IMG/VR virus record: IMGVR_UViG_3300050491_000011
Reading direction: 5' to 3' (one strand)
Source of the DNA: a virus
Taxonomy: Duplodnaviria; Caudoviricetes
Length of the DNA stretch: 64,000 nt
Part shown: piece after piece, positions 6,319-59,134 of the stretch
How the letters are laid out: the number at the start of each line of letters is the position of its first letter
Numbering within the stretch: position 1 is the stretch's first letter
Notes under the pieces: model-generated
Told to the model about the DNA's origin: nothing
Seen by the model: the letters and a program-made list of their open reading frames with translations, nothing else
Database searches by the model: none
Translations under genes and position numbers: made by a program

Positions 6319-6355
6319 GACATAAGAGCCGGGGCTTCCCCCGGCTCTCTATGCT
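6319..6355. terminator. Bidirectional CATAA-hairpin-TATG element
   Basis: gacataag-agccgggg-cttc-cccggctct-ctatgctg between convergent genes; no U-tract. Confidence 0.7.
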
Positions 6356-6356
6356 G

Positions 6357-6623
6357 TCAACTTGGTAATGTCATCCATGGGTTGCCGTTGGCTTCGTGGC
6401 CACAGCTTGCATGGTTACCTGAACGAACGACGGGGATACCATTGAACGTCATCCATGCAGAACCTTCAACCATCTTAGGTCCTGCGTGAGAGCCCGTACC
6501 GTGGCCGGCAACGTCGTCCCCTACCAAGGAGATGGGTTTACCGAGAACGGTCCATGGAACAGCTCCTGGACCGGTAATGACCCCACCTGCTTGCGATTCA
6601 CCTACGAGAGAGATCTGAGGCAT
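6357..6623 (-). CDS. PAAR-like baseplate spike tip protein
   Basis: 88 aa from ATG at 6623. Gly-rich repeats PISLVGD / PVVRSGN and Zn-ligand pattern GHG..H...SCGH. The ATG overlaps the spike stop (TGATG). Confidence 0.85.
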   Translation of the reverse strand: MPQISLVGESQAGGVITGPGAVPWTVLGKPISLVGDDVAGHGTGSHAGPKMVEGSAWMTFNGIPVVRSGNHASCGHEANGNPWMTLPS

Positions 6624-7441
6624 CAAGTAGTACCTACGAACTTAGGAGTTTTGAGGGTGGTTGACCCGGCATTCATCGTGAGAATGGAGCCACCACCATC
6701 GATCATGGCTTGAACACCAGCCTTCATGTTGATGTTCTTACCGGCTGTCAGGGTGAAGTCACGACCTGCTTTACCGATGATGTCTCGAGGTGCATTAACC
6801 TTGAGGTCTTCCTGATCGAGCTTTAGGAATGTACCCTTAGCGTTCTCAAGATGGATCAAGTTCAACGCACTGGCCAAGAACATGAAGTTGCCGATGTCGT
6901 CCTTGAGCGTGAATGTGCCCTCAGCCAGATCGAAGAACATCTCGTACAGAAAAGGTTCGCCATTCGCTTTACAGCTACGGAACGAGAGCATCTTACTGTG
7001 GGACGAGAGTTCAAACCAGTACATGTTGTCGAGACCGAGAGTTGTAGACCCTTCGTCTTGAGTTGCACTGATACCGAAGATGATGGTCTCAAGCTTTCTG
7101 AGGTTGTCATCCAGACCCATGGTCCGCCAATAGTACTTATCGTGATCCGCTGTTTGCAGGATCTCCACACGCTCACCACGGCGTACATCGGGTGCAGTCA
7201 ACCGGTTGGTGCCAGAAGGCAGCCAAGTCGCTGTGATGCTGTTGGAGGAGATCATACCGCCACTCACGGCGTTACCATCGATGTCTTTGGTCTGATACGT
7301 CTCAGCTGTTTCGTTACCGGTCAATTCACCGTCACGCATTGGCAGCCATTCAATAGGGACCACATCGACGGTCTTGCTGCCCAGCTCTTTGTTCGTGTCG
7401 ATACGACCGATACCGACCGTTCTGAAAACTGATACATCCAT
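6623..7441 (-). CDS. Baseplate central spike (gpV/gp5-like; phiKZ gp164-like by synteny)
   Basis: 272 aa. OB-fold-like N-terminus (WLPSGTNRLTAPDVRRGERV) and C-terminal beta-helix-like repeats. Directly upstream of the PAAR gene and divergent from SbcC. Confidence 0.75.
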   Translation of the reverse strand: MDVSVFRTVGIGRIDTNKELGSKTVDVVPIEWLPMRDGELTGNETAETYQTKDIDGNAVSGGMISSNSITATWLPSGTNRLTAPDVRRGERVEILQTADHDKYYWRTMGLDDNLRKLETIIFGISATQDEGSTTLGLDNMYWFELSSHSKMLSFRSCKANGEPFLYEMFFDLAEGTFTLKDDIGNFMFLASALNLIHLENAKGTFLKLDQEDLKVNAPRDIIGKAGRDFTLTAGKNINMKAGVQAMIDGGGSILTMNAGSTTLKTPKFVGTT

Positions 7442-7468
7442 GACGGTTCCTCTAAATCAAATTTAACC

Positions 7469-7484
7469 AAACGTCTTAATGATA
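7469..7484 (+). promoter_or_regulatory. Candidate promoter motif AAACGTCYTAATGATA
   Basis: Lies 29 bp upstream of sbcC. It is 15/16 identical to 63395-63410. Confidence 0.4.
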
Positions 7485-7512
7485 CAATAGCACTACTCAC
7501 GGAGCATCCGCG

Positions 7513-9945: not shown

Positions 9946-10130
9946 TGGTAATCGGTATCTTCTCGTTGATCTGTTTCATCGGCTTAATGTGTTTCTTCTG
10001 GCGCTTAAGCGGTGAAAAGAAGTTCTTTACCAAATTGTGTGTGACGGGAGGACTCAGCTTGGTCCTCACTGTTCTCTGTGCGTTTGGCGCAGCAAAAGAA
10101 CTGGCGTCGCTGAAGTTCCTTTTCAGTTGA
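9945..10130 (+). CDS. Small membrane protein
   Basis: 61 aa with two hydrophobic segments. The start overlaps the sbcC stop (TAATG). Confidence 0.55.
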   Translation: MVIGIFSLICFIGLMCFFWRLSGEKKFFTKLCVTGGLSLVLTVLCAFGAAKELASLKFLFS

Positions 10131-10154
10131 TGCCCGCAATGGAGTGAATGACTC

Positions 10155-10400
10155 ATGGACAAAAATCCAGAAGGTTACATCGGCGAAGCGTTGGTAACGG
10201 GTTTCGGTATTAACGAGATCCACATTCGCCTAAGTTACGGAAGAACTCGCTTGCGGGTTCCTTACAAGACTGAAGAAGCATTGTGGGAGAAGTATCAAGT
10301 TGATGACGTGGTGCATGTCTACCTCACTGCCGGTGATGGATGTGCTGAACTCCGCTTGAAGTCCCCACCGCCTCCGGCTGCATTTCCTCCAGAGATGTAA
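10155..10400 (+). CDS. Hypothetical protein
   Basis: 81 aa with GGAG RBS, ending just before the hairpin element. Confidence 0.6.
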   Translation: MDKNPEGYIGEALVTGFGINEIHIRLSYGRTRLRVPYKTEEALWEKYQVDDVVHVYLTAGDGCAELRLKSPPPPAAFPPEM

Positions 10401-10403
10401 ACA

Positions 10404-10435
10404 GCATAAAGCCCGGCCTTGAGCCGGGCCTTATG
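10404..10435. terminator. Bidirectional CATAA-hairpin-TATG element
   Basis: gcataaa-gcccggc-cttga-gccgggc-cttatg between convergent genes. The arms are identical to the 57324 element. Confidence 0.75.
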
Positions 10436-10442
10436 TTTGTCA

Positions 10443-11087
10443 TCAGCCGCCTGGAGCTGAACCTTCAAGATCTTTGATACGATCGTTGAGCGCTTCGATG
10501 GTTGCGATCATTGTTGCTTGTGCCGTTTTATAGGCTTCGATCTGCGCCATCAATACGAGGTTCTCAGCGTACGGAGTGGTACGAATAGCGATAGCCGCCG
10601 AACGTGCCGCAGCGTCAGCCACAGCTTGCTCTTGGGTTACCGCATCAGTAGTTGGGATCGTGGCAACAGACACGGTACTCTCAACACCGATGTAATCCGA
10701 CACCGCTTGCTTCACAGATTGCGTCAGACGGGTAAGGTCGTAGCTATCCGGCAAGATACCGAGATCAACAGTCGCAACCATCCAACTGTGAGGAACGACA
10801 CCCATGTTCGGATACGAATCAATGTAAGTATCCGGAACGTAGATCGCTTTCTCACTATCAGACATCAGCGTGATGATCGCAGCGCCAGCCGCGACGTCAG
10901 TCTGATAATCAGCCTCGACCAAGCTTACAGGATCGTAGACCAGTTTCATCGGATCTACGCCGCGATTGATAAGGTCCTCGAAAGAACGCTCACCAGTGAC
11001 GCGGTAGACGACCGTTGCTTTGGCGTTGAAGGGTGCTCGTAATACGAACAGACCTCTCGCACCTAACGGCGGAGTGATTCTAGCCAT
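10443..11087 (-). CDS. Probable virion structural protein
   Basis: 214 aa ending in a coiled coil, co-transcribed with the 443-aa gene. Assigned by phiKZ-like synteny. Confidence 0.5.
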   Translation of the reverse strand: MARITPPLGARGLFVLRAPFNAKATVVYRVTGERSFEDLINRGVDPMKLVYDPVSLVEADYQTDVAAGAAIITLMSDSEKAIYVPDTYIDSYPNMGVVPHSWMVATVDLGILPDSYDLTRLTQSVKQAVSDYIGVESTVSVATIPTTDAVTQEQAVADAAARSAAIAIRTTPYAENLVLMAQIEAYKTAQATMIATIEALNDRIKDLEGSAPGG

Positions 11088-11098
11088 ACGTCAATACC

Positions 11099-12430: not shown

Positions 12431-12542
12431 TGTTAATACCTCGGTTTGCGAGCGGCGAAAGGTATGACCGTAAGTGATGTAAAAACTTACACCATGTAGC
12501 CTGGAACTATATTATTTTTCAAGAACTTTAGGGGACTATGTA

Positions 12543-12965: not shown

Positions 12966-12967
12966 CC

Positions 12968-13345: not shown

Positions 13346-13409
13346 GTGGTTGATTCAAAAGATACAAACCTGACCAATACTCTAGGCGTACCTCTTAAGG
13401 AATTCAAGA

Positions 13410-14914: not shown

Positions 14915-15331
14915 ATGAACGTCTCAAGACTGGCATCGGATCAATATCCGGTAGTGGTAAAACATCATCCAGTCAATGATGGTGAACTAAATCCAAAGCA
15001 CAGCATAAAGCGATTTATCTTTGTTACATCGCTGTGGTGTTGGATGAATCATATCGACAACCCCACCGCTTCTGCGATGGACGAGTTGAATGAGCGGTTC
15101 AAGTTAGTAATGAGGTCGAAAGCGTTATTGTTCCCTGCGGCCATGAGCAAGATGGTCTGGGGTAAGATCGACCTCGCGACCATTCACACTCGCTACAAAC
15201 AACGGAAGATTCGTATTGAAGATGCAGTTTCTGAACTGATGCGTTGCGCTCCCTCTTGGGTGCGGTACGATAGTGACGAGTTGCTCCTTCGAGACGTTGA
15301 GGCGATCTTCCGGAGCGTCAAAACGGTGTGA
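14915..15331 (+). CDS. Hypothetical protein
   Basis: 138 aa with AGAGG RBS, co-transcribed with RNase H. Confidence 0.65.
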   Translation: MNVSRLASDQYPVVVKHHPVNDGELNPKHSIKRFIFVTSLWCWMNHIDNPTASAMDELNERFKLVMRSKALLFPAAMSKMVWGKIDLATIHTRYKQRKIRIEDAVSELMRCAPSWVRYDSDELLLRDVEAIFRSVKTV

Positions 15332-15335
15332 GCAG

Positions 15336-15375
15336 CACACACTCCCCAGCAGACAACTGCTGGGGAGTGTGTATG
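15336..15375. terminator. Long bidirectional hairpin ending in TATG
   Basis: acacactccccagcag-acaa-ctgctggggagtgtgt, a 16-bp perfect stem, then atgcc. It lies between convergent genes. Confidence 0.75.
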
Positions 15376-15378
15376 CCC

Positions 15379-16239
15379 TTATGACTTCAATGCGACGACA
15401 ATATCGTCACGAGCATTCGTCATTGCGCTGGTGAACTGTTCAGTCATATCGACCAATACAGCACCTGCGGTAACGGTAATACCGACCTGGTAGAACAGGT
15501 CAGACAGCTGGGAAGTAACGAGACCCGACATCTCATCGCCATCTTTGCCGTCCAGTTCCTTGCGCAGCTCTTGCACGAGGACGACCAGACGGTTGATCAG
15601 CTTCTGGATGTTGACGAAGTCTACCGCACCGACGTCAGCGTTCAGCTTGTTGATCAGGATGAAGGCTTCTTCGATGTCAGCGTTACGCTCAACTACTTTA
15701 CTGAGAGTAGTCTGGTTACGCCCGCCGTTCTGGAAGAAGGACTTGATCTTGTCGAAGTCCTCCTGAGGAATCAGCGCTAGGTTCTTCGCCAGATCACGAA
15801 TACCCGACTGTGCCTTCAAACGGTCCGGTTCATTGAGAGCAACCGCCAGTTTACTGTTGACCGCCTTGAGAGTGATCTCAGTGGTTTCAACAGCTGGGAG
15901 GATGGACTCGATCAGGAAGCGCAGGAAAGGCACCCACTCACCGCTGAAGCCCGGTGGAACGGCAACGTAGATACCGCGGGTCTTCTGGTAGTCTTTACCT
16001 ACCAGAGTTTCCTTCAGTTCTTCGATGTCGATCTTCTGCTTGACGTAGTTGCCAAGCTTCAGGCCGTTGCAGTACGTGGTGAAGTTTTCGATGTAGCTCT
16101 TGAACGTGGTCGCAAGACCGGACAGGAAGGCCAGAGCTTTCGACTCGGTGGACAGCATGCTGCCTTCTTCGATCAAGCTTGGAAGGGTGCTAGCAGATTC
16201 CGACGTGTAGTCAGCCAGCGTCTTGTTAACTTTCGACAT
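15379..16239 (-). CDS. Probable head protein with protease-processed propeptide (phiKZ gp153-like by synteny)
   Basis: 286 aa. The N-terminal acidic segment contains S-T-E|S, the S/A/G-X-E consensus of phiKZ-type prohead proteases. Divergent from uvsX. Confidence 0.55.
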   Translation of the reverse strand: MSKVNKTLADYTSESASTLPSLIEEGSMLSTESKALAFLSGLATTFKSYIENFTTYCNGLKLGNYVKQKIDIEELKETLVGKDYQKTRGIYVAVPPGFSGEWVPFLRFLIESILPAVETTEITLKAVNSKLAVALNEPDRLKAQSGIRDLAKNLALIPQEDFDKIKSFFQNGGRNQTTLSKVVERNADIEEAFILINKLNADVGAVDFVNIQKLINRLVVLVQELRKELDGKDGDEMSGLVTSQLSDLFYQVGITVTAGAVLVDMTEQFTSAMTNARDDIVVALKS

Positions 16240-22018: not shown

Positions 22019-22020
22019 AT

Positions 22021-22064
22021 AATGGGAGACTTCGGTCTCCCATTATCCCCACTTCTTTTTTTTT
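22021..22064 (+). terminator. Intrinsic terminator
   Basis: aatgggagac-ttcg-gtctcccatt (cUUCGg loop) followed by a long T-tract. TATG follows at about 22068. Confidence 0.85.
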
Positions 22065-22100
22065 GTCTATGGTGTGATAGTTACACTCAGGATGATAACC

Positions 22101-23141
22101 ATGGCAGCTTCATTAGCAAACACGATTTTCCAAGGCAACTCCCGTGACGCGATGGTTGTTTCCGACGCGTACAAGATTTCAAAGAACGAGACTCGCAACA
22201 GCATGTACGATTCCGTTAAGGGGATCTACAGTGGTGCAGTTGATGGCCTGTTCGCTAACAAGAGTTCTATCACGACCCTCGCTGGATTGGTGAAACAAGC
22301 TAAGGGCGGTAGTGTCGATAAGATCGGCATGCTGAACACAGCCCTCGGTGCAATGGGTACGAGTCTTCCGGGTCTGCTCGGTACGTTGGGTGGTTCTCTC
22401 AAGAACGTCTTGGGTGACGCTGCTGGCTCGATGATTGGTCCTGGAGCTCAGAAGAGTATCGAGGTACTCTACAAGAACGCCGGTATGCTCATTGGCGCTG
22501 CTGACATCGATAGCACACACGACCTCTTGAAGTTCGTGAATGCGATGGCTGGCGATAGCGAGCTGACTCAGTTCATCAACATCGAAGCTGAAAGCGCAAT
22601 CATCGGTGGTATTGCCAAGAACCTGATGGACTACGGTCTTGATGATCTTGTTGATGAAGCTATCGAGATGGGACGGTCAGAAGAAGTCAGGAAGAATGCT
22701 TTCGCTTACATGTCCGTGGCTGCTGTCAATGGTCCATTGGGTTCTGGCGTTGGCGGCTCTAACCTCGACATGATCAACAAGGTCATCGATAACATCGGGA
22801 TCACCAAGTTCCTCGAATACAACCCTGATGCAGTGGCTGGCATTATCGCTGGCTACAACTTCGATCCGACCTACACGCCTGCTGACTATCCAGCGCAGCG
22901 CACCAAGTTGATCAACACATTGGTTCGCATCAATGCCAACTGGTATCAGAAACTTCGTGCTGGCGTTTACATTCCGAACCTCGGTCCTTTCCTGAAGCAA
23001 AGCGCTTCCTCGAAAACCCTGTTCTGTATGGAACCTCCACTACGTACGATCTCGATGGCGGCGACTGGCAAGGCTACCGCTAACGTCGGTACGGTTGTGA
23101 AGACACTCTACCCGAATGCGTACATGCCGGGCATCAAGTGA
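22101..23141 (+). CDS. Probable virion (baseplate/tail) protein
   Basis: 346 aa from ATG at 22101 (track start 22074). It converges on the tape-measure operon as in phiKZ-like phages. Confidence 0.5.
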   Translation: MAASLANTIFQGNSRDAMVVSDAYKISKNETRNSMYDSVKGIYSGAVDGLFANKSSITTLAGLVKQAKGGSVDKIGMLNTALGAMGTSLPGLLGTLGGSLKNVLGDAAGSMIGPGAQKSIEVLYKNAGMLIGAADIDSTHDLLKFVNAMAGDSELTQFINIEAESAIIGGIAKNLMDYGLDDLVDEAIEMGRSEEVRKNAFAYMSVAAVNGPLGSGVGGSNLDMINKVIDNIGITKFLEYNPDAVAGIIAGYNFDPTYTPADYPAQRTKLINTLVRINANWYQKLRAGVYIPNLGPFLKQSASSKTLFCMEPPLRTISMAATGKATANVGTVVKTLYPNAYMPGIK

Positions 23142-23175
23142 CATAAGGCCGGGGGATTACCCCGGCCTCTATGCT
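23141..23175. terminator. Bidirectional CATAA-hairpin-TATG element
   Basis: gacataag-gccggg-loop-cccggc-ctctatgctg between convergent genes. It is a near copy of the 6319 element. Confidence 0.7.
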
Positions 23176-23177
23176 GT

Positions 23178-37966: not shown

Positions 37967-37997
37967 CCACTCCCGGAAGACCGGGAGTGGCTGTATG
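37967..37997 (+). terminator. Hairpin-TATG element between co-directional genes
   Basis: ccactcccgg-aaga-ccgggagtgg, then ctgtatg; no U-tract. Confidence 0.65.
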
Positions 37998-38019
37998 TAT
38001 ATAGTCGAGGTATTTCCTG

Positions 38020-42557: not shown

Positions 42558-43967
42558 ATGCGTGAATTCATGGAACTCATCTCGACTGAATCCAGCGTAG
42601 TTGCTGAGTCCAGTGATGGTCCTGAAGTCAGCGTATCTGGCATGTTGGTGGAAAGCACCGCCACGGAACCTAGCGTAACTGAGCACTTCGATACGATCGA
42701 AGAAACTCAGGATCTGTCTTCTCAGCTTGACGAGTTGGCAGATCACGCGGACGCCGTGGCGAAGGCTGAAGAAAACGGGGAGATCAGCTCTGAAGCTGCC
42801 TTCCTGTCCACCGAGTCGATGAACCGTGAGTTCCGCTCCATCATGCGTTCGGCTAAGCTACCTTACACTGCTTCGAGTTTCGAAGCTGCTGGTAGTGATG
42901 CTGAGCGTGCGGTGGGTCTTGCTCGCGATGCTCGTCGTGTCAGTAAGCTCGCGTTGGAACATGCAGATCACCTCAGGGACTACACCGAAGAAGGTGCGCT
43001 CCTGAGCTTCCTGCGTCGCGATGAAAGTAAGCTTAACAAAGCTCACGATAGTCTCGATCAAGTTTCCAAACGACTTCAGAAGAAGATCGCTCAGCTGTCC
43101 GAGAAGCCGGTGAAGATTCGTAACCAGGGCTTTGCCCGGTTCATGACTCGTAACAACCGTCAGGTCACCGACCTTGGCGCGGCTATCGGTTCTGAGTCGA
43201 AGTATCTGGCCAGCACTCACGATCAGATCGAATCAGCTATTAAGGCATTGGGCGTAATGTCCAACAACCTTCGTGGCCCTCAGGTTCTGTCTGCCTTGAA
43301 CGGCTTGGTCAACGCCCGTCCATTCGTGTCGGCGTCCAACTTGGGTACGGAAGAAGGTTACCTCATGGGTAACTGCACTATCGAATCCGATGAGACCGAT
43401 GGTCCTTTCCCTCACCTGCTTGTCCCTAAGTACACTCGTACTAGCGGCATCCGGGTTAAGGGTAAGTCCGTTGGTTGGGCGGCTCTCGGCGGTCTGTTCG
43501 GCGCGGTGAACGGTTGGGCTTGGTCTACCATCATCTGCCTTGGCGGTATGGCTGTAGGCGCTCCAGTCGTTGTAGGTCTCGCTTACGCAGCTCTGCCGGT
43601 AATGAAAGTAGGGTTTGGCGCTAAAGGTGCCTACGACTCGTTCCAGAAGTCCGAGGACGAAAGTAACAGTCGTTCTCAAGCATCCGCTCAAGACCTGAAA
43701 CGCGTCGTGGACATGGTGCTGGGCTACACTCGTTACACCAACTACACTGTGGATGCTGATCTGATCCGTGCAAACCTGAAGGCTGCTCGCAAGAACACCG
43801 ACGGAATGACGCCAGAACAGAAGAAGCAGTTGTCCGGTGTAATCAACGCTCTGGACACCAGTCTGGATCGGTTGGTTCGTTTGGCAAGCCAGACGTACGA
43901 GCAAGCGTACTACACGACTACCATGTCGGCTGCGTTGATCTCGGCTGCATGCAATCGTTCGATGTAA
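42558..43967 (+). CDS. Internal head (ejection-type) protein with acidic propeptide, paralog B
   Basis: 469 aa with repeated STE|S sites and SFE|A. The block REFRSIMRSAKLPYTASSFE...LARDARRV is clearly homologous to paralog A. Confidence 0.7.
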   Translation: MREFMELISTESSVVAESSDGPEVSVSGMLVESTATEPSVTEHFDTIEETQDLSSQLDELADHADAVAKAEENGEISSEAAFLSTESMNREFRSIMRSAKLPYTASSFEAAGSDAERAVGLARDARRVSKLALEHADHLRDYTEEGALLSFLRRDESKLNKAHDSLDQVSKRLQKKIAQLSEKPVKIRNQGFARFMTRNNRQVTDLGAAIGSESKYLASTHDQIESAIKALGVMSNNLRGPQVLSALNGLVNARPFVSASNLGTEEGYLMGNCTIESDETDGPFPHLLVPKYTRTSGIRVKGKSVGWAALGGLFGAVNGWAWSTIICLGGMAVGAPVVVGLAYAALPVMKVGFGAKGAYDSFQKSEDESNSRSQASAQDLKRVVDMVLGYTRYTNYTVDADLIRANLKAARKNTDGMTPEQKKQLSGVINALDTSLDRLVRLASQTYEQAYYTTTMSAALISAACNRSM

Positions 43968-43970: not shown

Positions 43971-44018
43971 CATATCCCACCTACAGATGCCAAAACATCT
44001 GTAGGTGGGTTTATGCCG
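43971..44018 (+). terminator. CATA-hairpin-TATG element
   Basis: cata-t-cccacctacagatg-ccaaaa-catctgtaggtggg-tttatgccg (14-bp stem). Confidence 0.75.
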
Positions 44019-44032: not shown

Positions 44033-44069
44033 AAAAATATTACAGTCACACATCACTCGAGTACAATAC
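44033..44069 (+). promoter_or_regulatory. Early promoter candidate, copy 1
   Basis: aaaaata-ttacag-tcac-acat-cactcgagtac-aata. Same spacing as the copies at 44564 and 58665; it contains TATTAC, like the phiKZ early consensus TATATTAC. Confidence 0.65.
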
Positions 44070-44904: not shown

Positions 44905-44950
44905 TCATCAGATCGGTCGGCCAACGGCCGATCTGATGATTTCTTTTTTT
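44905..44950 (+). terminator. Intrinsic terminator
   Basis: tcatcagatcgg...ccgatctgatga followed by a T-tract. Confidence 0.8.
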
Positions 44951-45014
44951 GTACTTAAACCAAACACAACCACACATTACCAAAGGGATAATACAAACAT
45001 GTTGAGGCTTATGA

Positions 45015-45843: not shown

Positions 45844-45887
45844 TAAAGCCGGGGGTTCGCCTCCGGCTTTATGCCCTTTCTTTTTTC
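45844..45887 (+). terminator. Intrinsic terminator of the TAAAG...CTTTATG family
   Basis: taaagccggggg-ttcg-cctccggcttta-tgccc followed by a T-tract. Confidence 0.85.
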
Positions 45888-45925
45888 TTACTGTATTTAT
45901 TTTCTCAACCAGCAGGAACTAAAGC

Positions 45926-46249
45926 ATGATTCTTCGCAATGGCGATTTCAAAACCTTTGGTACTCTTGAACGCGCACTCTTCCGTGAGTGTGGTGTTCGT
46001 ATCGTATTCCGCATCGATACCGATACCCAACTGTTCCCGAGTGTTAGGCTCACCCGTCAAGGTTATCCGATCATCATCGATCGAATGACTGTCGCCCAAT
46101 TCAAGGAAATGATCCGTGGCTCGATGCGGCGTCGGTGCGTGAGTACTAACGACGATCACATCCTCGCCAAGACTTCACTGGATGTCGTTAGTAACTGCGG
46201 CATTATCCCTGCCGGTCAAACTCTCATCAAGAACGTGATCTTCGGATAA
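45926..46249 (+). CDS. Hypothetical protein
   Basis: 107 aa with AGGA RBS. Confidence 0.6.
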   Translation: MILRNGDFKTFGTLERALFRECGVRIVFRIDTDTQLFPSVRLTRQGYPIIIDRMTVAQFKEMIRGSMRRRCVSTNDDHILAKTSLDVVSNCGIIPAGQTLIKNVIFG

Positions 46250-46259: not shown

Positions 46260-46308
46260 GCATAAAGACCGGGGCGTAATGCCCCGGTCTATGCCACTTC
46301 TTTTTTTT
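46260..46308. terminator. CATAA-hairpin-TATG element with T-tract
   Basis: gcataa-agaccggggc-gtaat-gccccggtct-atgcc...tttttttt between convergent genes. Confidence 0.85.
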
Positions 46309-46309
46309 G

Positions 46310-46627
46310 TCACCGTTTGGATGTGATCCGGTACTTGGTGCTCTTCGGCAACACAAGCTTACCGACCATCGTACCAATCATGACCTCCCCAGTCATGCTG
46401 ATCGATTCCAAACGATAGTCACTTCCTTCCAGAAAGCGGCTATCTACACAATTCTGGCTGTAGTGGATTACACCACCCACAGCTAGTAGGGCCTCCCCGA
46501 CCCTACGAACCTCATCCCTGACGTTTTCTTTGTCCAGGTATACGATGCCACAGGTTCCCACACCTTGCAGCCTCAAATCGCTTTCCAGCTCCTTGAGTGA
46601 CTCGAGCAGTTTGTGTTGTGCTGGCAT
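46310..46627 (-). CDS. Hypothetical protein
   Basis: 105 aa, downstream of the tube gene and a hairpin at about 46660-46692. Confidence 0.5.
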   Translation of the reverse strand: MPAQHKLLESLKELESDLRLQGVGTCGIVYLDKENVRDEVRRVGEALLAVGGVIHYSQNCVDSRFLEGSDYRLESISMTGEVMIGTMVGKLVLPKSTKYRITSKR

Positions 46628-46701
46628 AGTGCTATCTCTTTTAGTGCTTCACGGTATAAAGCCTGGACTCAACCTTTCGGAAGAGTCCAGGAGTAACGGT
46701 G

Positions 46702-50689: not shown

Positions 50690-53311
50690 ATGGTTAGTTC
50701 AACCGACTTTCTGGTTGATCACGCCTACCGGAATGCTTGGTGCAGTCCACGGCAAGATCGCCAGCACATCGTAGCACCGACGCGGATCACTAAACGCCAA
50801 GGTGCTATCGGTAACGTCAAGCTCGGGATGAAGACTTACAACCTTCCGTCGCTCGGCAAGTGGTATCACGTTTTCAACATCGGCGACCTCCCACCTATCT
50901 TGGTGGGAATGACTACAATCGTCGATAAGTGGGTATCGGTAATGGGGCAGTGTAATGCTACTTCATTGCTGGTAGATCTGTACACCGAACTCGGTTTACA
51001 CATCCCGGCCCACAGAGCATATTGGCTGTACACTCATACCGGGCAGTTGGTGCTCGCTATTTTGGACACCAAGAAGATCGCAAACCTCGGTATTGAGCAG
51101 CCGTATATCCGTTGGAGAAGCAACGCTTACTTCGATGGTAACGACGGCATGTTCCTCAATGACGGGATCGAGATCGCAGGTCTCACGCCGACTACTCAGG
51201 CTCAGTATTCGCTGTTTCAAGCGAAGTGGCGCGCTGCCAAACTGCTGCCGGGTTACGCTTGGGCCTTCGTCAACGGTAAGCGTGTCAAGGACATCAACCT
51301 GACCACTGCGGTGGTTGGGGACATCCTTGAATACACCTACGACGCTTCGGTGAAAGTTGTTACTGAACTGAAGATCAAAGATCTCAAGTCGTTCCTGAGT
51401 ACCCTCGATACCAAGGGCAAGTATCTGGTGCCGCGTGCTGGCGTGTCTGACATCATCGACTACTGCGATGACATCGATATCTACATGTTGCGCTACCACT
51501 TGACCGCCGCTTACACCGGACACTATTACCACCAGAACCAGCCGGACTCTGTTCGGATGGTAACGCATCGGGACTACTCGATTCCGCAGACTTATCTCCA
51601 GCACTTCATCGATAACATCGAAGGGTGGATCTGGAACGATGACCTGCGTCTGGAAGTGATCGTTCGTAACAGCGGCTGGACGAATCGCCCTCTGGTTAAC
51701 GAGGCGCATCGGATCAAGGAACTGTTCAAGCTTTCTGAGACTAATCGTCTTAAAGCAATGATCGGTGAGCAGTCTCTCGATATCTGGCATGCTGCGGAAC
51801 TTGAGAACAGCTTCTATCCGAAGATCATGCGTGCTGAGTTCGGTGGCATTGATCGTCCGATGGTTGAGAAAGCTTACGGGTACAATGCGATCGCTAAACT
51901 GATCTGCGACGTGCCTTACAAGGTTGCTGTGAATTCGCCGTGGGTGGATCTTCCATTCGCAGTGACGCAGTTCTCGACTGTGTTCGAATACGACAGCTCC
52001 GGCTTGCTGCTAGGTTGGTACGTTCACGATAACTCGATTCAGTATCCGGTTCACAATCCGGAAACGATGTACATCGAGAGCTATGTCGGCCGGGGCGGCA
52101 CTAAGCTGTCGACGATTTACGATACCGATCTGGTTAAGTTGGAATACGGCGTTGACTACCGGTTCTACGTTTGTGACATCTGGAACGGTGTTTCCAAGAA
52201 CAACTGGAAAGACGTAACAGGTGACGATGAGTACTACACCATCTCTAATCGGGTGGTTAGCTGGCACATCGATCAAACGAAATTCCACACGGCAATCCGT
52301 GACAGCAAAGACTTCCTGTGCCATACGCTTCAGTTGAACTATCGTGATGACCTGCTGACTCTCACCGTGAATATCGATGAGGTGTTGAGCGGGCGTGTTC
52401 CGGTTACCGACGTGATGCGTGTTCCGCCTGGTCAGTTCGATGTGATCCTTAACAAGTTCACGTTGGTTCCTGATATCGACTATTACGTCGAGTGGCCTGA
52501 AGTCTGCATCGTCAACAAGATGTATCTGAAACCGGGTGCAATGCAGGACGTGACCATTCGTGGTCGTGGCTTCTGTAACCCTGACATGACTTTGGAACCG
52601 GTCGGTGATTCTGGCTTTGTTGCTTACGAGCAGCTCAGTCATAACGCTCGGTTTAACGTGCGGGACGATAAGGTCTGCCGCATCTCCATTGCAGGTCAGT
52701 TGTACACCCGTGAAGAAGTTGCATTCAGTGAAGACGGGGCAGTGCTTGCCACTGGTGTGAAGAACGGCACGCCGTACCTGATCACTCACCCAGTGATTCC
52801 GATGATGGGCGTTACAGATACCGACACCTACACGTTGAAGGCAGTTTCTGATGCCATCGATGAGAAAGTGGAAGGGTATCTCACTCAGTACCGTCCTGAG
52901 CCGGTGCAACCGTTGCCGTCTGGGATGCCTGCGTGGTACTCGGTATTCAGTCCTTTCTGCGCGAAGCTTATCTACGACATGCTTAACGGCATTCTGTTGA
53001 TGGATGAGTTCATGGGTACTTATACCTTGCAGCAGGTCAAGGAGAAGTTGGTTGGTTACGAATGGATTCTCAAGTACGACCCTGCTATTCGGGGCGTGAA
53101 TGATGAATACGTCAAGATCGATCCGCACCCTGAAGCCGAAGTCATCGAGCTCAACATCTACCAGTATCGGTTCTTGGATCGGGCGGTCGAAGCTTTCCTC
53201 GACGGTAAGGTTCCTCTCAACCACCACTTGGTGATTGTAGAGCCTGGCTACGAGCATGAGCAGGACGATCACCCTCACCCGCATCGTTCTTGGGACGAAG
53301 TGTCGGCATAA
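50690..53311 (+). CDS. Virion/baseplate structural protein (phiKZ gp27-like by synteny)
   Basis: 873 aa starting FLVDHAYRNAWCSPRQDRQ. Confidence 0.65.
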   Translation: MVSSTDFLVDHAYRNAWCSPRQDRQHIVAPTRITKRQGAIGNVKLGMKTYNLPSLGKWYHVFNIGDLPPILVGMTTIVDKWVSVMGQCNATSLLVDLYTELGLHIPAHRAYWLYTHTGQLVLAILDTKKIANLGIEQPYIRWRSNAYFDGNDGMFLNDGIEIAGLTPTTQAQYSLFQAKWRAAKLLPGYAWAFVNGKRVKDINLTTAVVGDILEYTYDASVKVVTELKIKDLKSFLSTLDTKGKYLVPRAGVSDIIDYCDDIDIYMLRYHLTAAYTGHYYHQNQPDSVRMVTHRDYSIPQTYLQHFIDNIEGWIWNDDLRLEVIVRNSGWTNRPLVNEAHRIKELFKLSETNRLKAMIGEQSLDIWHAAELENSFYPKIMRAEFGGIDRPMVEKAYGYNAIAKLICDVPYKVAVNSPWVDLPFAVTQFSTVFEYDSSGLLLGWYVHDNSIQYPVHNPETMYIESYVGRGGTKLSTIYDTDLVKLEYGVDYRFYVCDIWNGVSKNNWKDVTGDDEYYTISNRVVSWHIDQTKFHTAIRDSKDFLCHTLQLNYRDDLLTLTVNIDEVLSGRVPVTDVMRVPPGQFDVILNKFTLVPDIDYYVEWPEVCIVNKMYLKPGAMQDVTIRGRGFCNPDMTLEPVGDSGFVAYEQLSHNARFNVRDDKVCRISIAGQLYTREEVAFSEDGAVLATGVKNGTPYLITHPVIPMMGVTDTDTYTLKAVSDAIDEKVEGYLTQYRPEPVQPLPSGMPAWYSVFSPFCAKLIYDMLNGILLMDEFMGTYTLQQVKEKLVGYEWILKYDPAIRGVNDEYVKIDPHPEAEVIELNIYQYRFLDRAVEAFLDGKVPLNHHLVIVEPGYEHEQDDHPHPHRSWDEVSA

Positions 53312-53356
53312 ACCCAATAGGGGGCGGGCAACCGCTCCCTCTACTGAGTCGAAATT

Positions 53357-55075
53357 ATGGCTGAGAATATCATCCCGTTACCGAACGGTTATACGGTGAT
53401 CACTGACGAGGATCGTGAAAAGGCGTCGGTCTTTAAGATCGCTGACCTCTACTCTTACAGACTCGTGGACGATGGCAGTGATGTTATCAAAGGTGAAGGC
53501 AAATACGTACCGAACGTCGATGACCTGGTCATCATTTATGAACTCGGCATGTTTCGTGTTAGTCGGGTGGATTACACCAGTTACGTCGCTGACCTAGAAC
53601 TCTGGGAACTTCCCAAGTCTGGTGGTGATGTTGGTGTGGTCGACGTTCTGCTCGGTGTTGGCACTGGCTACACCAGCGAAACTTGGCGGGCAATGCTGGA
53701 CACCCGCAAGCTGCCGTACACTCTGGACGTTGATGGTCGACTCCACATGTACAGCGATCTGGCGAAAGAGTTCCGTGTCTTCAAAGGCATTGACATTACC
53801 CAGACTGGCGAAGTCATCAGTGCGTATTACAACGCATCGAACGAATACGTCAATGATGCTATCCCTCTGAAGACCGTTGGTACTGACGTTGTCACTAACC
53901 TCAATATCAAAGCTCCTACAGCGGGCTACAGCACCATTGCGCTTGAAGATGGTGCATTGGTGACGGCTGTGTTCTACAGCTTCACTGGCGCGATCCTGAG
54001 CATCGCTAAGCTGCTGATCCACAACACGAACGTGATCCGCCATCCTGATGATTCGGTTAAACGGATCAAATCGATTGAGCTGATCAGTCCGTACCTGTCG
54101 ACGACTGAGCCGAACGTCCTGAACATCTCCATCTCTGCAACTGTGGCCACTCTGGCACTGCGCGGTAAGGTGACGTACATCGACGGTACGACTTCTATCC
54201 AAGACGTTGTGGATGAAGACTCGAACGGCAAGATGAAGTTGCTGGGCCTGAAGTACTGGTCTCCAACCATCACCGGTCGTTACGCCGACGTTACTCTGAG
54301 CTATGCTCCGAGTGAAGGTGAGGAATTCTCTTACAGTCAAGGCACCACTTACGCCGGCACTGTAACTGTTCCTTATCAGATCCGTGGCCTGCCAGTCGAT
54401 CCTTCGTACAGCCTCAAGCTGTTCGTGTTCCCATCGTGGATCTCGAACCTGCAAGGCTACGCGCTGGAATACTGGCTCTACGACCTGAACCGTCAGGTGG
54501 CTCGTCGTGTACCGAAAGCTGCTGTGGAATTGCACGAAGACTCCATGCCGTTCGACGGCCTGGAATACATCACAGTGCAGACCCTGAAGTTCGGTGTGAA
54601 CCTCGGCGTGGTCGATACCAGTTACGGCAGCAACCGCCATGTGCAAACAGTGCAGGTTGCGTTGCAGCGTGATGGTGGTCTGCGTGCTACCAACTGGAAA
54701 GTCAAGTTTGCGAGCAACCAGCCGGGTTACTACGGTACTGGTATCGAAGCGATCATCCGGGCTGGCAGCAGCGGCCTGAGTACCGTGAATCTGAAATGCG
54801 GTGCTGTTGATAAAGCTGCGTGGCTCAAGCTGGTCTTCGAACCACTGCAAGCACTGTACGATCCGCAAACTGAAGTGTCGGCTCCAGCACCTACTCACTT
54901 TGTCGTGACTACGAAGACTCGCGTCTACGAATTCCCGATCGGTCAGTGGGCTAACGACCTCACATTCATCAACGATCTCCAGGAAGGCGAGACTCTCTAC
55001 GTTAAGTTCCTCAAACGTAACGTCTCTGGCGATCTGCAACTGGCTGTGGCTGGTTTCCCTACGCACTCGGTCTAA
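53357..55075 (+). CDS. Virion/baseplate structural protein (phiKZ gp26-like by synteny)
   Basis: 572 aa, beta-rich (Ig-like strands), immediately upstream of the terminase. Confidence 0.65.
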   Translation: MAENIIPLPNGYTVITDEDREKASVFKIADLYSYRLVDDGSDVIKGEGKYVPNVDDLVIIYELGMFRVSRVDYTSYVADLELWELPKSGGDVGVVDVLLGVGTGYTSETWRAMLDTRKLPYTLDVDGRLHMYSDLAKEFRVFKGIDITQTGEVISAYYNASNEYVNDAIPLKTVGTDVVTNLNIKAPTAGYSTIALEDGALVTAVFYSFTGAILSIAKLLIHNTNVIRHPDDSVKRIKSIELISPYLSTTEPNVLNISISATVATLALRGKVTYIDGTTSIQDVVDEDSNGKMKLLGLKYWSPTITGRYADVTLSYAPSEGEEFSYSQGTTYAGTVTVPYQIRGLPVDPSYSLKLFVFPSWISNLQGYALEYWLYDLNRQVARRVPKAAVELHEDSMPFDGLEYITVQTLKFGVNLGVVDTSYGSNRHVQTVQVALQRDGGLRATNWKVKFASNQPGYYGTGIEAIIRAGSSGLSTVNLKCGAVDKAAWLKLVFEPLQALYDPQTEVSAPAPTHFVVTTKTRVYEFPIGQWANDLTFINDLQEGETLYVKFLKRNVSGDLQLAVAGFPTHSV

Positions 55076-55134
55076 GGGATACGATCTAGGGAGGGCGACC
55101 TCCCTAGGTCACTATGCCGCATTGAGGACCAATC

Positions 55135-57321
55135 ATGACACTTTTGTATTTGGAACAATGGGATACGAAATATCCCAACGCGATTGCCGATACCCAGACA
55201 CGCCGCCAGACGTGGGTTAAGTTGGCAGCAAAGTACCAGAAGATGGGAGTGAAGAACTATTACTTCCACTTGGCTTTGCATAACCCTCTCTTGCAGGGGG
55301 TCGATCCATATTCGGATGACTTGACTCCTGCGCAACAGCAGATGATCTTGCTCGAGTGTTCCGAGAACTTCTGGTACGCTCTACGTGAGGTGATTCGTTT
55401 CCCGGATGCTGGTGGTGATCAGTATTTCCACTTGGATGCGAACCGTGGCAACATCGCCATGTTCTGGTGTATCTTCAACGCCTTTGTTACTTACGTACAG
55501 CAGATCCGTCAGACAGGTAAATCCCTGAACAGTCGGGCAATCATCATCCTGCTGCACATGTTCGCAGCTCAAGGTTCTGACTCCATCCTCTTCACCAAGG
55601 GTGACTTGCGTAAAGGCGAGATCAAGAACTACAAGGCTTATCGGGACGCACTGCCGAAGTGGATGTGGTACAAGGCGGACAAGGACACGGATAACCAGTA
55701 CGAATTCACTACGATGATGAATAAGAACATCACGTACTCGTACGTTCCACAAGGTTCTCCAGAAGAGGCGAACAACGTGGGTCGCGGTAAGACCCCTCGC
55801 TTCATCTACGGGGACGAAATCCCGTTCCTGCCGTACGCTGCCATTTCTCTTCCTGCATTGATCGCATCCACCACGGACTCCTTCGACAAGGCAAGGTCGC
55901 AAGGCCTGTTCCACGGTGTTCTCTACACGACTACGGCCGGTGACTTGTCAACGGATTCGGGTAAGTACGTTTACGAGAAGATCAAGAAGAAGGCGATGTT
56001 CTTCAGTGAGTCTCTGTTCGATGCTCGTAATCGTTCAGAAGCCATTGACATGATCATGGCAAACAGTAAATGCGAATCCCGCGATGCTCCGTTTGTGGAC
56101 ATCTCGTTTAACCACCTGCAACTCGGTAAGACGAACGAATGGCTGCGCGGTAAGATCGCGATGGTTTCAGCATCTCGTGACCAGATCGAACGAGACTTCC
56201 TTGGACGTTGGACTTTCGGTTCCGAGAGTAACCCTATCCCTGAGAAGATCCTCAACAAGATCCGTGACAATGCGCAACAGGCTCCGTATGTTCAGGTCGA
56301 AGAGAAGTACAAGTACCACATCAAGTTCCAGCTCCCTCCTGAGGAAGTAAGGGCTCGTAAAGCTGTAATGGGTCTCGATACATCCAACGCGGTTAACCGA
56401 GATGCCATTACTGGCGTGATGATCGATGTGGAAACCGGTGAGACGTTGATGACGTTCATGGTGAGTGAGATCAGTCTTTCTTACTTTGCCTATTGGTTGG
56501 CTCAGTTCATGGCTGACTTCCCGAACTTCACCCTGATCCCTGAGAACAAGTCCTCGTGGCTTGGTATGTTCGACATCCTTAACAGCCGTCTCCCGATGCT
56601 GGGTGTGGATGTGGGTCGTCGTATCTACTCGGATATCGTAGACAATGCTTACGGTTCTGATGCTGAGAAACGTACCTACCGAGATTACACTTCGGGCGGT
56701 GGTTCTGAGCGTAAGTACTTCCCGTTCCGTAACGACTTTGGTTTCATGACCACAGCCGGTAGTCGTGGCGATCTGTACATCGACATCCTGAAGTTGGCTA
56801 CTGTTCAACAGGCTGAGCTGATTCGTGAGCCTGCACTTATCGATGAGCTATCCAGTCTGGTAGAACGTCGCGGTCGGGTTGACCACAAAGCCTCTGGACA
56901 CGATGACCACGTAATCTCGTGGTTGATGGCTAACTGGTTCCTTCGTTTCGCCCGTAACTTGGATCACTACGGAATCGATCCGCGTAAAGTCCTTTCCCGT
57001 GTACGTTCTGTTACTGCCGGTAATGATCCTAAGGTCGTTGCCAAGAACCGTAAGCGTGAGAAACATGCGGTCGATGTAGAGATCCTTGAAGCACGTATCG
57101 AAGGTGCAGCTACTCTGATCGAACGTCGTTACTTGGAAGCCAAGCTGAAGTCTCTGATGTCTGAGGCTATTGGTGAGGAAGAGTCTGACGTAGTTTCCGT
57201 TGACCGTGTGGCTGTTAGTGAGAAGAACATTCAAACAACTGCTGCTCGTGGGATGAACCGAGATGGTCTGTTCGCAGCCGCTCGCAACATGCCTTTCCGT
57301 CCAGGCTTCAATCGTCGTTAA
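55135..57321 (+). CDS. terL: Terminase large subunit
   Basis: Walker A QQIRQTGKS, Walker B FIYGDEIPF, nuclease motifs VMGLDTSNAVNRD and GHDDHVISW. Confidence 0.93.
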   Translation: MTLLYLEQWDTKYPNAIADTQTRRQTWVKLAAKYQKMGVKNYYFHLALHNPLLQGVDPYSDDLTPAQQQMILLECSENFWYALREVIRFPDAGGDQYFHLDANRGNIAMFWCIFNAFVTYVQQIRQTGKSLNSRAIIILLHMFAAQGSDSILFTKGDLRKGEIKNYKAYRDALPKWMWYKADKDTDNQYEFTTMMNKNITYSYVPQGSPEEANNVGRGKTPRFIYGDEIPFLPYAAISLPALIASTTDSFDKARSQGLFHGVLYTTTAGDLSTDSGKYVYEKIKKKAMFFSESLFDARNRSEAIDMIMANSKCESRDAPFVDISFNHLQLGKTNEWLRGKIAMVSASRDQIERDFLGRWTFGSESNPIPEKILNKIRDNAQQAPYVQVEEKYKYHIKFQLPPEEVRARKAVMGLDTSNAVNRDAITGVMIDVETGETLMTFMVSEISLSYFAYWLAQFMADFPNFTLIPENKSSWLGMFDILNSRLPMLGVDVGRRIYSDIVDNAYGSDAEKRTYRDYTSGGGSERKYFPFRNDFGFMTTAGSRGDLYIDILKLATVQQAELIREPALIDELSSLVERRGRVDHKASGHDDHVISWLMANWFLRFARNLDHYGIDPRKVLSRVRSVTAGNDPKVVAKNRKREKHAVDVEILEARIEGAATLIERRYLEAKLKSLMSEAIGEEESDVVSVDRVAVSEKNIQTTAARGMNRDGLFAAARNMPFRPGFNRR

Positions 57322-57323
57322 CA

Positions 57324-57354
57324 GCATAAAGCCCGGCTCACGCCGGGCCTTATG
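57324..57354. terminator. Bidirectional CATAA-hairpin-TATG element
   Basis: gcataaa-gcccggc-tcac-gccgggc-cttatg between convergent genes. Confidence 0.75.
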
Positions 57355-57359
57355 TTCGC

Positions 57360-58628
57360 TTACTTCTCGTTGTGGTGCTTTGTGAAGGCCCGCAGGAGAA
57401 TGTAAAGAAGTACAGCGTTACGTACTGATGAGATCAAAACCTTGTTCTTGGACTTGATCGCGATAGTCGTAATATCTTCAGTAAGCTCACGCATCTCGAG
57501 AATCATCGGGTTGTTCGTACGACTGGCTTGATACAACGAGCGCATCTTACGAAGCAGACCTGGGATGTCAGAACTTGACACCATGGTCGATGGATTCTTG
57601 TTCAGGTAATCAAACGCATGCTGCAACGTGATCTCACAGATCCGCTGTACGCGCTTGTCAGCCCGAGGAGAGGCATTGTTGGACATGTACGACAGTGTGT
57701 TCACCAACGCGCTCTTAGGCATCGTAGGGACTGTCTTAACGATAACCTCGACCAACTCCGGGATGATGAAGTTGTTCTTATCGCTAATGATCTCCAATAG
57801 GTAACGGATGTAGCTCGAATACAATCGAGTCTTGTCACGGATCTTGAGCTCACCATCGAGTTCGATCTGCGCATCCGAGTTACGGATCTGAAGCGTTGGA
57901 TCGTGAAGCACGGTTTCAAAGACGTCCCGAATGTTCTTCAGGATATCCTTGATACGACCTTGAGTATCGTTGGCGATCTTGTCGATGTCTTTATCGAACT
58001 TGATCAGGTGGTTGTACCACAGCGTACCTTTACTGACGATGTCAGCAGCACGTTGTTTAAGCAACTCACCCCAACTGCCCGCTACTTTAAGGCCAAAGCG
58101 TTTTGATAGCTGGGCGTAGGTCGCTTGGGCGACGATGGGATCGGCGTCCCAGGTAAACCAATTAGCGAGAATAGATGTGATATACTTGTACTGGAGAACG
58201 AGAGCGCAAGCCATAGCGCCGCTGTGCCGATCACCTTCATTGAGTTTGTCCGCCGTCAGAAATTTATGGATCATCCAAAGACAGGCCAAGTTCATGACGT
58301 CGCTGGATACGTGCCGGTGAGTTACCACTTCAGGAAGAGCATGTAGATCATCCTCAAGGGAATCTTCATCCACGTCCATCACTTCATCGAACCACTTGTT
58401 CCGGTCTTCATCTTTGAATCGTACCGGATCGACGCCCATCAGGTTCCCACCGAAGAATCTGATGTGTACGTCATTCTTGTTTACGAACCGCTGTTCGTAG
58501 TCCATCACCTTACGAAGAAGCTTCTGATCAAAGACAAGGTGGGAGCAGTGATGCTCAAACACTTCTTTGATGTTGCGCATCGTAGGTGTGTGACCGTTGA
58601 TTGTATCTCGAATCATCGAAGTCCCCAC
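57360..58628 (-). CDS. Conserved phiKZ-like protein, probably virion-associated
   Basis: About 420 aa, helical, convergent on terL. The true start may be a downstream ATG (58616 or 58580). Confidence 0.55.
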   Translation of the reverse strand: MGTSMIRDTINGHTPTMRNIKEVFEHHCSHLVFDQKLLRKVMDYEQRFVNKNDVHIRFFGGNLMGVDPVRFKDEDRNKWFDEVMDVDEDSLEDDLHALPEVVTHRHVSSDVMNLACLWMIHKFLTADKLNEGDRHSGAMACALVLQYKYITSILANWFTWDADPIVAQATYAQLSKRFGLKVAGSWGELLKQRAADIVSKGTLWYNHLIKFDKDIDKIANDTQGRIKDILKNIRDVFETVLHDPTLQIRNSDAQIELDGELKIRDKTRLYSSYIRYLLEIISDKNNFIIPELVEVIVKTVPTMPKSALVNTLSYMSNNASPRADKRVQRICEITLQHAFDYLNKNPSTMVSSSDIPGLLRKMRSLYQASRTNNPMILEMRELTEDITTIAIKSKNKVLISSVRNAVLLYILLRAFTKHHNEK

Positions 58629-58664
58629 CCTGTTAGGGTTCTTTAGTCACAGGATACCTAACGC

Positions 58665-58700
58665 AAATTATTATAGTCCTACATTGTACTCTTAGAATAA
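58665..58700 (+). promoter_or_regulatory. Early promoter candidate, copy 3
   Basis: aaatta-ttatag-tcct-acat-tgtactcttag-aata, about 35 bp before an AGGAGG RBS. Confidence 0.65.
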
Positions 58701-58732
58701 CCAACACTAACCGACCGTAGGAGGTCAACGCA

Positions 58733-58912
58733 ATGAGCAATCAAGCAACTAATAAGCCGATCTTTCTGCGTTCCGGTGATGATCTTGACTGCGATTGCGG
58801 TCGACGGGGAAGCGTAAAGATTCCGTATAACCCAGCTCCAGGCAAAACCTCGTACCACGTTTTCTGTGATGATCATTACGATGATTGGAAGGAAGACAAC
58901 AAAGGGTCTTAA
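58733..58912 (+). CDS. Small Zn-finger-like protein (59 aa, not in the ORF track)
   Basis: Manual translation MSNQATNKPIFLRSGDDLDCDCGRRGSVKIPYNPAPGKTSYHVFCDDHYDDWKEDNKGS with AGGAGG RBS and a CxC...CxxH pattern. Confidence 0.75.
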   Translation: MSNQATNKPIFLRSGDDLDCDCGRRGSVKIPYNPAPGKTSYHVFCDDHYDDWKEDNKGS

Positions 58913-58914
58913 AG

Positions 58915-59103
58915 ATGTCTCAGCAAGAACCTTCAAAGCTCCAATCGGTTTGCTCTCAGTGTGGGCAGCAATCCGAAACGTTGTTCACCACAGCGTTAAA
59001 CATCGGCGGGATCAGCACGGTTGTACCGAATGTCTGTCCTCGTTGTATTTCTTCTAAGGGTGACGTTAGCAAGCATCTTGCCGACTACTCACCAGAAGCA
59101 TAA
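58915..59103 (+). CDS. Small Zn-ribbon protein (62 aa)
   Basis: MSQQEPSKLQSVCSQCG...VCPRC... with CxxC...CxxC; it starts 2 nt after the previous stop. Confidence 0.7.
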   Translation: MSQQEPSKLQSVCSQCGQQSETLFTTALNIGGISTVVPNVCPRCISSKGDVSKHLADYSPEA

Positions 59104-59134
59104 GGACTTGCCGGGGTTTTCCCGGCGCTTATGC
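59098..59134 (+). terminator. CATAA-hairpin-TATG element
   Basis: gcataag...gccggg-gtttt-cccggc-gcttatgc. Confidence 0.65.

Follow-up and report, generated by a model that had tools for sequence, protein, structure and literature searches.

Hairpin-TATG elements at gene ends of an uncultured phiKZ-like jumbo phage are probable transcription terminators of a type already mapped in phiKZ

The phage sequence IMGVR_UViG_3300050491_000011 from IMG/VR (64-kb, 52% GC; hereafter the window, meaning the whole stretch of 64,000 nucleotides) carries a family of intergenic GC-rich hairpins followed by the letters TATG, and these hairpin-TATG elements are the subject of this analysis. The window codes for a DUF7193 virion protein, a large terminase, and further virion proteins, and it contains homologues of two phiKZ genes for the virion RNA polymerase, gp178 and gp180. 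The DUF7193 protein matched 288 phage records, of which the best 25 were all from jumbo phages (34-40% identity); the closest matches among cultured phages were ~35-40% identical. Based on the DUF7193 protein, the terminase and virion proteins, and the gp178 and gp180 homologues, the window phage therefore appears to be a distant, uncultured member of the nucleus-forming (phiKZ-like) jumbo phages. A megablast search of the window against phage records gave no match. The sequencing runs containing window DNA were soil and rhizosphere metagenomes.

For genome-wide counts we used G002, a complete relative from IMG/VR (253,921 bp, with terminal repeats) that aligns colinearly with the window at 82-93% identity. 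A homologue of gp123, a subunit of the non-virion polymerase, was found in this close relative. A second relative, G003, has a terminase identity of 58%. Junctions were classed as intergenic, convergent, or co-directional from crude gene calls that were then corrected using PHROG hits.

All 12 intergenic hairpins that the initial annotation had listed were present, and each is named here by the position under which it was listed. The stem is followed by TATG at 11 of the 12, the exception being 46655 with the right flank AGTAACGG, and the commonest extended right flank is TATG(C/T)(C/T). The left flank RCATAA, described as conserved along with the right one, held only in part. It is complete at 6319, 10404, 23141, 46260, 57324, and 59098, partial at 43971 (CACATAT), 46655 (GTATAAA), and 45844 (CGTAAA), and absent at 15336, 37967, and 55085. 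RCATAA is the reverse complement of TTATGY and can be read as the same box on the opposite strand. Stems span 7-16 bp across all listed sites. The arms AACAGCATAAAGCCCGGC...GCCGGGCCTTATGTT are shared by 10404 and 57324, and 6319 and 23141 are near twins, both as annotated.

The box starts most often 2 nt past the last G-C pair (range 0-5), and the G of TATG lies ~6 nt past the GC core. Most of the hairpins had been described as lacking U-tracts. They indeed have no canonical run of ~6-8 U starting 0-2 nt from the stem, but the box segment is itself U-rich (YUUUAUG), with only UUUAU or CUAU at most sites. A lenient T-tail scan (5 T in 8) passes 43976(-), 45842, and 57331 and fails 46260, 55085, and 59098, and an extra T-run is found 8-10 nt downstream at 45844 and 46260. 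We found no family matching these elements in Rfam.

We then asked how often TATG lies within -3 to +7 of the stem end of perfect-stem hairpins. In the window this was the case at 10 of 22 intergenic hairpins and at 1 of 16 in coding sequence, with a per-site chance of 1.5%. In thirty dinucleotide shuffles of the window, hairpin-TATG combinations averaged 0.63 and never exceeded 3, compared with 11 observed. A strong hairpin precedes 15.6% of TATGs and 3.0% of the 4-mers that arrange these letters in one of the 11 other ways, a fivefold difference. The pattern CATA-N16-38-TATGY was observed 19 times versus 9.9 expected, 14 of the 19 being 7 hairpin loci counted on both strands, and the strict tail TTATGYYGT was found 5 times. 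The sole coding-sequence case in the window (33934-33957), where TATG follows a 7-bp hairpin within the gene for the virion RNA polymerase, is probably due to chance. The genome-wide scan in a relative that the initial annotation had proposed gave the same picture: in an unbiased 4-mer count 3' of the intergenic hairpins of G002, TATG ranked first (60 of 194 flanks versus 3.06 expected), and no TATG enrichment was found after coding-sequence hairpins of that genome. Among its intergenic 7-mers, TTTATGC was second in frequency only to T7.

The elements were found at gene ends in an orientation that follows the genes. The fully palindromic window copies (6319, 10404, 23141, 46260, and 57324) separate convergent genes in every case, while 37967, 45844, and 55085 lie between same-strand genes and have a box in the downstream flank but not in the upstream one. 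At the convergent junctions of G002, TATG and/or a T-run was present on 38 of 44 flanks, each 3' of one gene and facing the oncoming gene. This placement fits that predicted for stop signals, not promoters. Among the co-directional hairpins with a box in G002, 13 have it downstream only and 7 in the antisense flank only, while 10 carry it in both flanks. Since the box occurs without its complement, as in the 13, and since its letters are fixed beyond what pairing needs, the flanks are not mere stem extensions, as the initial annotation had cautioned they might be.

The initial annotation named TATG as the core of the phiKZ late promoter. This core, with the G as start site, is proven, and promoter activity requires it but needs more than these letters (Yakunina et al. 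2015, PMC4666361). This raises the alternative of a stop-and-restart cassette, in which the hairpin would end one transcript and TATG (G = +1) would act as a late promoter of the non-virion polymerase, giving antisense RNA at convergent pairs. The letters are the same, and between co-directional genes the box often stands at a distance from the following gene that would suit a promoter: in 9 of 23 cases in G002, its G is 19-28 nt upstream of the start codon of that gene. TTTATGC(C) without a hairpin was also found 29-49 nt upstream of some genes. However, the box tracks the hairpin and the gene end, not gene starts, and is most regular at convergent junctions, where no gene follows; because TATG there has no gene to serve, a promoter is disfavoured at these sites. 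In phiKZ, only 4 antisense RNAs with a defined start were reported versus 133 termination regions (PMC10914365). Separate TATGs were equally dense in junctions whose hairpin lacks the box (2.1 per kb) and in those whose hairpin has it (1.9), although this comparison is uninformative. We consider restart at the box unlikely overall, though it may occur at co-directional junctions, and the earlier proposal of cassettes firing antisense RNA into convergent genes was not borne out at convergent sites.

The hairpin loops carry information on the strand that is selected. At the co-directional junctions of G002, 24 of 35 4-base loops matched UUCG or GNRA when read in the sense direction, compared with 0 of 35 in the antisense direction and 3.5% expected by chance. 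Because loop identity is strand-specific, the hairpin appears to be selected as a structure in the sense transcript and not as a DNA palindrome. This bears on the possibility that the elements are palindromes acting at the DNA level, such as binding sites of a phage protein, cruciforms, or small mobile repeats that spread by copying. In favour of this, the core reads as a perfect palindrome in the DNA, and identical arms (GCCCGGC) recur in several window copies and about ten in G002. Such sites would, however, have to account for loops that track gene direction, for one-way copies whose flanks are not palindromic, and for the restriction of copies to gene ends. The shared outer flanks are fully accounted for by the consensus box on both strands, and orthologous sites exchange whole stems while box and position stay. 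The behaviour of mobile repeats of the repetitive extragenic palindrome (REP) or miniature inverted-repeat transposable element (MITE) kind was not seen either: alignable sites are in place in G002, and stems differ widely among copies. A DNA-level origin is thus highly improbable, including the protein-binding sites that the initial annotation had listed.

To characterize the conservation of the elements, we compared the window with its relatives. In the 15 alignable elements, 13 of 572 positions (2.3%) differ from G002, compared with 692 of 7,639 (9.1%) in the 300-nt flanks, which are mostly coding (p = 2e-10). The elements are therefore under purifying selection. The changes inspected were mostly in loops: every difference at 23141, and all differences between 59098 and its relatives, fall there. 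A matched double change at 15336 (C-G to T-A), of the kind sought in the covariation analysis that the initial annotation had suggested, leaves pairing and TATG intact, and a single C to T change at 10404 repairs the stem by converting an A.C mismatch into an A-T pair. Element 6319 has 0 differences from G002 in 38 positions while its flanks differ by 16.5%, and 57324 is identical in four relatives.

In the more distant G003, the gap before the terminase contains a different stem followed by CTATGCCGT in the same place as 55085, and the gap after the terminase contains CATA, the new stem CAGCGGGGC, and then TATGCTGT in the same place as 57324. Box and position are thus retained while stems turn over. 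The counterpart of 43971 in G002 (88610-88630, after the same gene) is an unrelated hairpin, GCCCGGCC followed by TTTGTGCCGT, with the box TGTG instead of TATG; this shows what looks like a terminator replaced in place, with stem turnover at a fixed site.

Elements of this kind have been described in two phages of the same family, both with multisubunit polymerases of their own. In phiKZ, Putzeys et al. (2024, Microlife, PMC10914365) mapped 133 termination regions, with a stem-loop followed by TTAT and the consensus ...GGGRRGGBYTTATKYYGT. They also reported six two-way regions, located where genes converge. Motif A of 201phi2-1 (n = 59) was found at mapped RNA ends in a study that also reported 15 two-way sites (PMC11512511), and it resembles both the phiKZ motif and the elements here. 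The three share a GC-rich stem-loop followed by TTAT(G/T)YYGT, their location at gene ends, and two-way forms between convergent genes. We found CATAA-GCCCTCCC...GGGAGGGC-TTATG palindromes in phiKZ itself, and in our own scan of that genome the K position of the consensus was G in 14 of 20 instances. The full published consensus in International Union of Pure and Applied Chemistry (IUPAC) code gave zero exact matches, phiKZ included, so the match here is at the level of the consensus only. There are also differences. The stems are CCCTCCC/GGGAGGG in phiKZ and mostly of the GCCCGGC/GCCGGGG type here, and the phiKZ genome has 37% GC versus 52% here, so that the AT-rich box stands out more in the window.

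With folded stems, the hairpin-TATG combination was found to be enriched in phiKZ, 201phi2-1, Xoo-sp14, DT01, RSL2, and Goslar and weak in SPN3US, while enrichment was absent from AR9, T4, and RSL1. A perfect-stem 4-mer test had given no TATG signal in 100 kb of Goslar; this result was discarded as an artefact of the criterion, since folded imperfect stems gave 6.8% versus 1.5%.

Taken together, we consider it likely that the elements are factor-independent transcription terminators that belong to the phage itself and represent the type previously mapped in phiKZ. The motif was already described in phiKZ and 201phi2-1, and the elements here appear to be the local form of a known, family-wide terminator. 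Terminators specific to the phage RNA polymerases had been the first proposal of the initial annotation. Its terminator part is supported by the gene-end location, the convergent statistics, the sense-strand UUCG/GNRA loops, and the phiKZ motif. Its specificity part is not, as eight selected 201phi2-1 terminators also stop the host polymerase in uninfected cells, in a two-reporter trap (PMC11512511). The same annotation knew of no mechanistic description, which was fair as to the mechanism, still undescribed, but not as to the motif itself (PMC10914365, PMC11512511). A 2020 review of these polymerases contains nothing on their termination.

If the elements are terminators, the nascent RNA would fold into a GC-rich hairpin, often capped by UUCG or GNRA, and the box (U)UAUG(C/U)(C/U)(G)(U) would follow, at the spacing given above, forming an RNA-DNA hybrid that is short, weak, and rich in U. 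This would place the box's G near the usual RNA release zone of multisubunit polymerases; in intrinsic termination, RNA release usually occurs 7-9 nt past the stem. Convergent genes would need the box on both strands, and the palindrome CATAA-hairpin-TTATG would then serve as a two-way terminator. RNA 3' ends are predicted at these elements in the window phage, and their exact position is likewise a prediction. Canonical Rho-independent terminators are similar in having a GC hairpin followed by a U-rich stretch and in gaining two-way function from a complementary A-rich left flank, and the terminators of a related phage (201phi2-1) also halt the host polymerase. What sets the elements here apart from the canonical form is that 6-8 consecutive U do not directly follow the stem. 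Their U-stretch is only 3-4 U long, is interrupted, and is closed by a fixed AUG(C/Y), and these fixed letters exceed what a weak hybrid needs.

Several observations weigh against this interpretation. The box was also found on 17 of 71 antisense flanks at the co-directional junctions of G002, element 53306 has it on the antisense side only, and at 15336 the minus-strand gene is left without a box. Some of the symmetry could thus be plain stem extension or serve to control antisense RNA. The weakness of the hybrid by itself leaves the fixed ATG(C/Y) beyond the U-rich part unexplained. In addition, RNA 3' ends were mapped in phiKZ and 201phi2-1, while the elements of the window phage are read from DNA alone.

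The long-read 3' ends of those phages (PMC10914365, PMC11512511) would also be compatible with processing back to a protective hairpin. The elements could then be sites of RNA 3'-end protection or processing, where an exonuclease trims back to the hairpin and the box is recognized by a nuclease or another protein. The high stability of the hairpins and their sense-strand UUCG/GNRA caps would suit such a role. However, the two-reporter trap measures read-through, and in it the eight 201phi2-1 terminators blocked downstream reporter expression (PMC11512511). Moreover, a box located 3' of the hairpin would be trimmed away, which makes its strong conservation hard to explain. We consider processing sites very improbable, although a role in RNA stability or in 3'-end processing, the latter in line with the RNA-processing sites of the initial annotation, is inseparable from termination by sequence alone.

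A further reading, which we consider unlikely, gives the polymerase itself a part. In a 2026 structure, four bases of the non-template strand lie in a pocket of the beta-like subunit GP123, and this pocket is incomplete in the transcribing complex (PMC12809450). Because the GP123 pocket binds non-template TATG at promoters, an enzyme-read pause or restart is possible. Tentatively, the box may be read by the non-virion polymerase, with a GP123-type beta-lobe pocket catching TATG and causing sequence-specific pausing and release, or restart at the G. As a companion idea, held just as loosely, a second terminator class (described below) may serve the virion polymerase, giving two stop signals for two polymerases; the reason is that this class is confined to one strand, like an early-promoter-like motif. 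We compared the pocket with the terminator box in eight phages including this lineage. F151, H331, and Q466 were kept in all eight, and SPN3US differs at several other residues. No clean split of pocket residues by box was found across 14 side-chain residues and the backbone positions 155 and 156 in these eight phages. Separately, the open reading frame (ORF) at 61327-62823 was considered as a homologue of the polymerase gene gp74 and dropped, as its match to phiKZ gp74 covers residues 59-143 only. Such a short match is no ground for a polymerase-subunit annotation, and the ORF was not used as evidence of a non-virion polymerase.

Table 1 Putative terminator elements in the window, with strand, parts, and flanking genes.
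Coordinates	Strand	Putative type	Parts	Gene context
6319-6356	both	two-way terminator	stem 6325-6348, loop CTTC; CATA 6321-6324; TATG 6350-6353; tail CTATGCTGT	between convergent genes 5043-6314 (+) and 6357-6626/6623-7441 (-)
10404-10438	both	two-way terminator	stem GCCCGGC/GCCGGGC 10411-10429; CATAA 10405-10409; TATG 10432-10435	between convergent genes 10155-10400 (+) and 10443-11087 (-)
15337-15378	+ only	16-bp hairpin	stem 15337-15372, running into TATGCC	convergent genes 14915-15331 (+) and 15379-16239 (-)
22019-22065	+	second class, same class as G002 sites	hairpin 22019-22046; CCCCACTTC + T9 + GT; T-run 10 nt past stem	
23141-23176	both	two-way terminator, near twin of 6319	stem 23146-23168; TATG 23170-23173	between 22074-23141 (+) and 23178-25166 (-)
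37967-37999	+	one-way terminator	stem 37967-37990; TATG 37994-37997; left CATAA absent	3' of virion RNA polymerase gene 33682-37956 (phiKZ gp178 homologue)
43971-44018	both	14-bp hairpin	stem 43976-44009; right TTTATGCCGT; left CACATAT	3' of gene 42558-43967 (+)
44905-44952	+	second class	long hairpin, directly followed by TTTC + T7 + GT	
45844-45890	+	one-way terminator	stem 45844-45871; TTTATGCCC; T-rich run 45878-45889	within block of small plus-strand genes
46260-46309	both	two-way terminator	stem 46266-46290; TATG 46290-46293 overlapping stem foot; then CCACTTC + T8 + GT on plus strand	between 45926-46249 (+) and 46310-46627 (-)
46655-46691	-	doubtful member	hairpin 46662-46691; plus strand without TATG; minus strand near-motif CTTTATAC	divergent gap
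53306-53343	- only	extra element, absent from the initial annotation	GC hairpin; TTTATGCCG on minus strand	between co-directional plus genes
55086-55119	+	one-way terminator	stem 55086-55107	between virion protein gene 53357-55075 and large terminase gene 55135-57321
57324-57357	both	two-way terminator	arms as in 10404	3' of terminase; between 55135-57321 (+) and 57360-58628 (-)
59098-59134	both	two-tier hairpin	outer GCATAAG/CTTATGC; inner GCCGGG/CCCGGC	
59918-59960	+	second class	hairpin, then CTTTTTTCTTTGT	3' of gene 59172-59903
63155-63195	+	second class	UUCG-capped hairpin, then TTCATTC + T9 + GT	3' of gene 62816-63148

The plus-strand gene upstream of 6319 is backed by a PHROG hit. In the 53306 element, CATAA contains the stop codon of gene 50690-53311. 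Downstream of the virion protein gene, CTATGCCG starts 5 nt past the stem of the 55086 element and is located 19 nt upstream of the terminase start codon. Upstream of the 59098 element there is probably a small zinc-ribbon gene on the plus strand. This ORF (58885-59103) has a zinc-ribbon-like CxxC...CxxC pattern and terminates with a TAA that is part of the element's CATAA; a poor codon score leaves its status as a gene uncertain. A second small plus-strand ORF, 58733-58912, has paired cysteines too.

The initial annotation had also listed ordinary U-tract terminators at 22021, 44905, and 63152. These exist, but they share a fixed motif of their own and form a second class, in which the hairpin is followed, most often after a spacer of 6-12 nt, by C-T7-10-G, often ACTTC-T8-GT. 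Window copies are 22021, 44905, 45844, 46260, 59918, and 63152, and T-run tails lie at 22053-22064, 44941-44952, 45878-45889, 46298-46309, and 63181-63192. G002 has 25 runs of at least 7 T, 24 of them on the plus strand. A strong hairpin precedes 22 of these 24; 23 of the 24 are preceded by C, and 23 of the 24 are followed by G or A. No T-run was found on the 71 antisense flanks at co-directional junctions of G002. A similar tail, CTTTC-T7-GT, was observed at many SPN3US terminators.

Two further motifs were observed in the gaps between genes or in front of gene blocks. The motif (A/T)TTACAG-TCACACAT, with an A-rich stretch before it, occurs 10 times in G002 and once in the window (44039-44053), on the plus strand only, where it precedes blocks of small genes on that strand; it resembles an early promoter of the virion polymerase. 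In G002, the first motif-bearing terminator after this early-promoter-like motif was of the T-run type in 8 of 10 cases, against a base rate of 53%, which gives only a lead towards linking the T-run class with early transcription. The motif CYTAATGAWA was found at 7475-7484, 63401-63410, and 63486-63495 (3 versus 0.31 expected), two of the copies lying within AAACGTCYTAATGATA. All three copies are in gaps upstream of plus-strand genes, and the motif may be a promoter or operator belonging to a different class.

The elements would not represent a new kind of element. They would be useful for gene and operon annotation of metagenomic jumbo phages, and they extend the signal from the mapped phiKZ terminator to a distant, uncultured, 52%-GC member of the family from soil. 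The hairpin with its TATG box appears to be an old, conserved feature of these phages, one that AR9 and unrelated large phages lack. This sharpens the question of why the tail of a terminator should be spelled like the core of the polymerase's own promoter.

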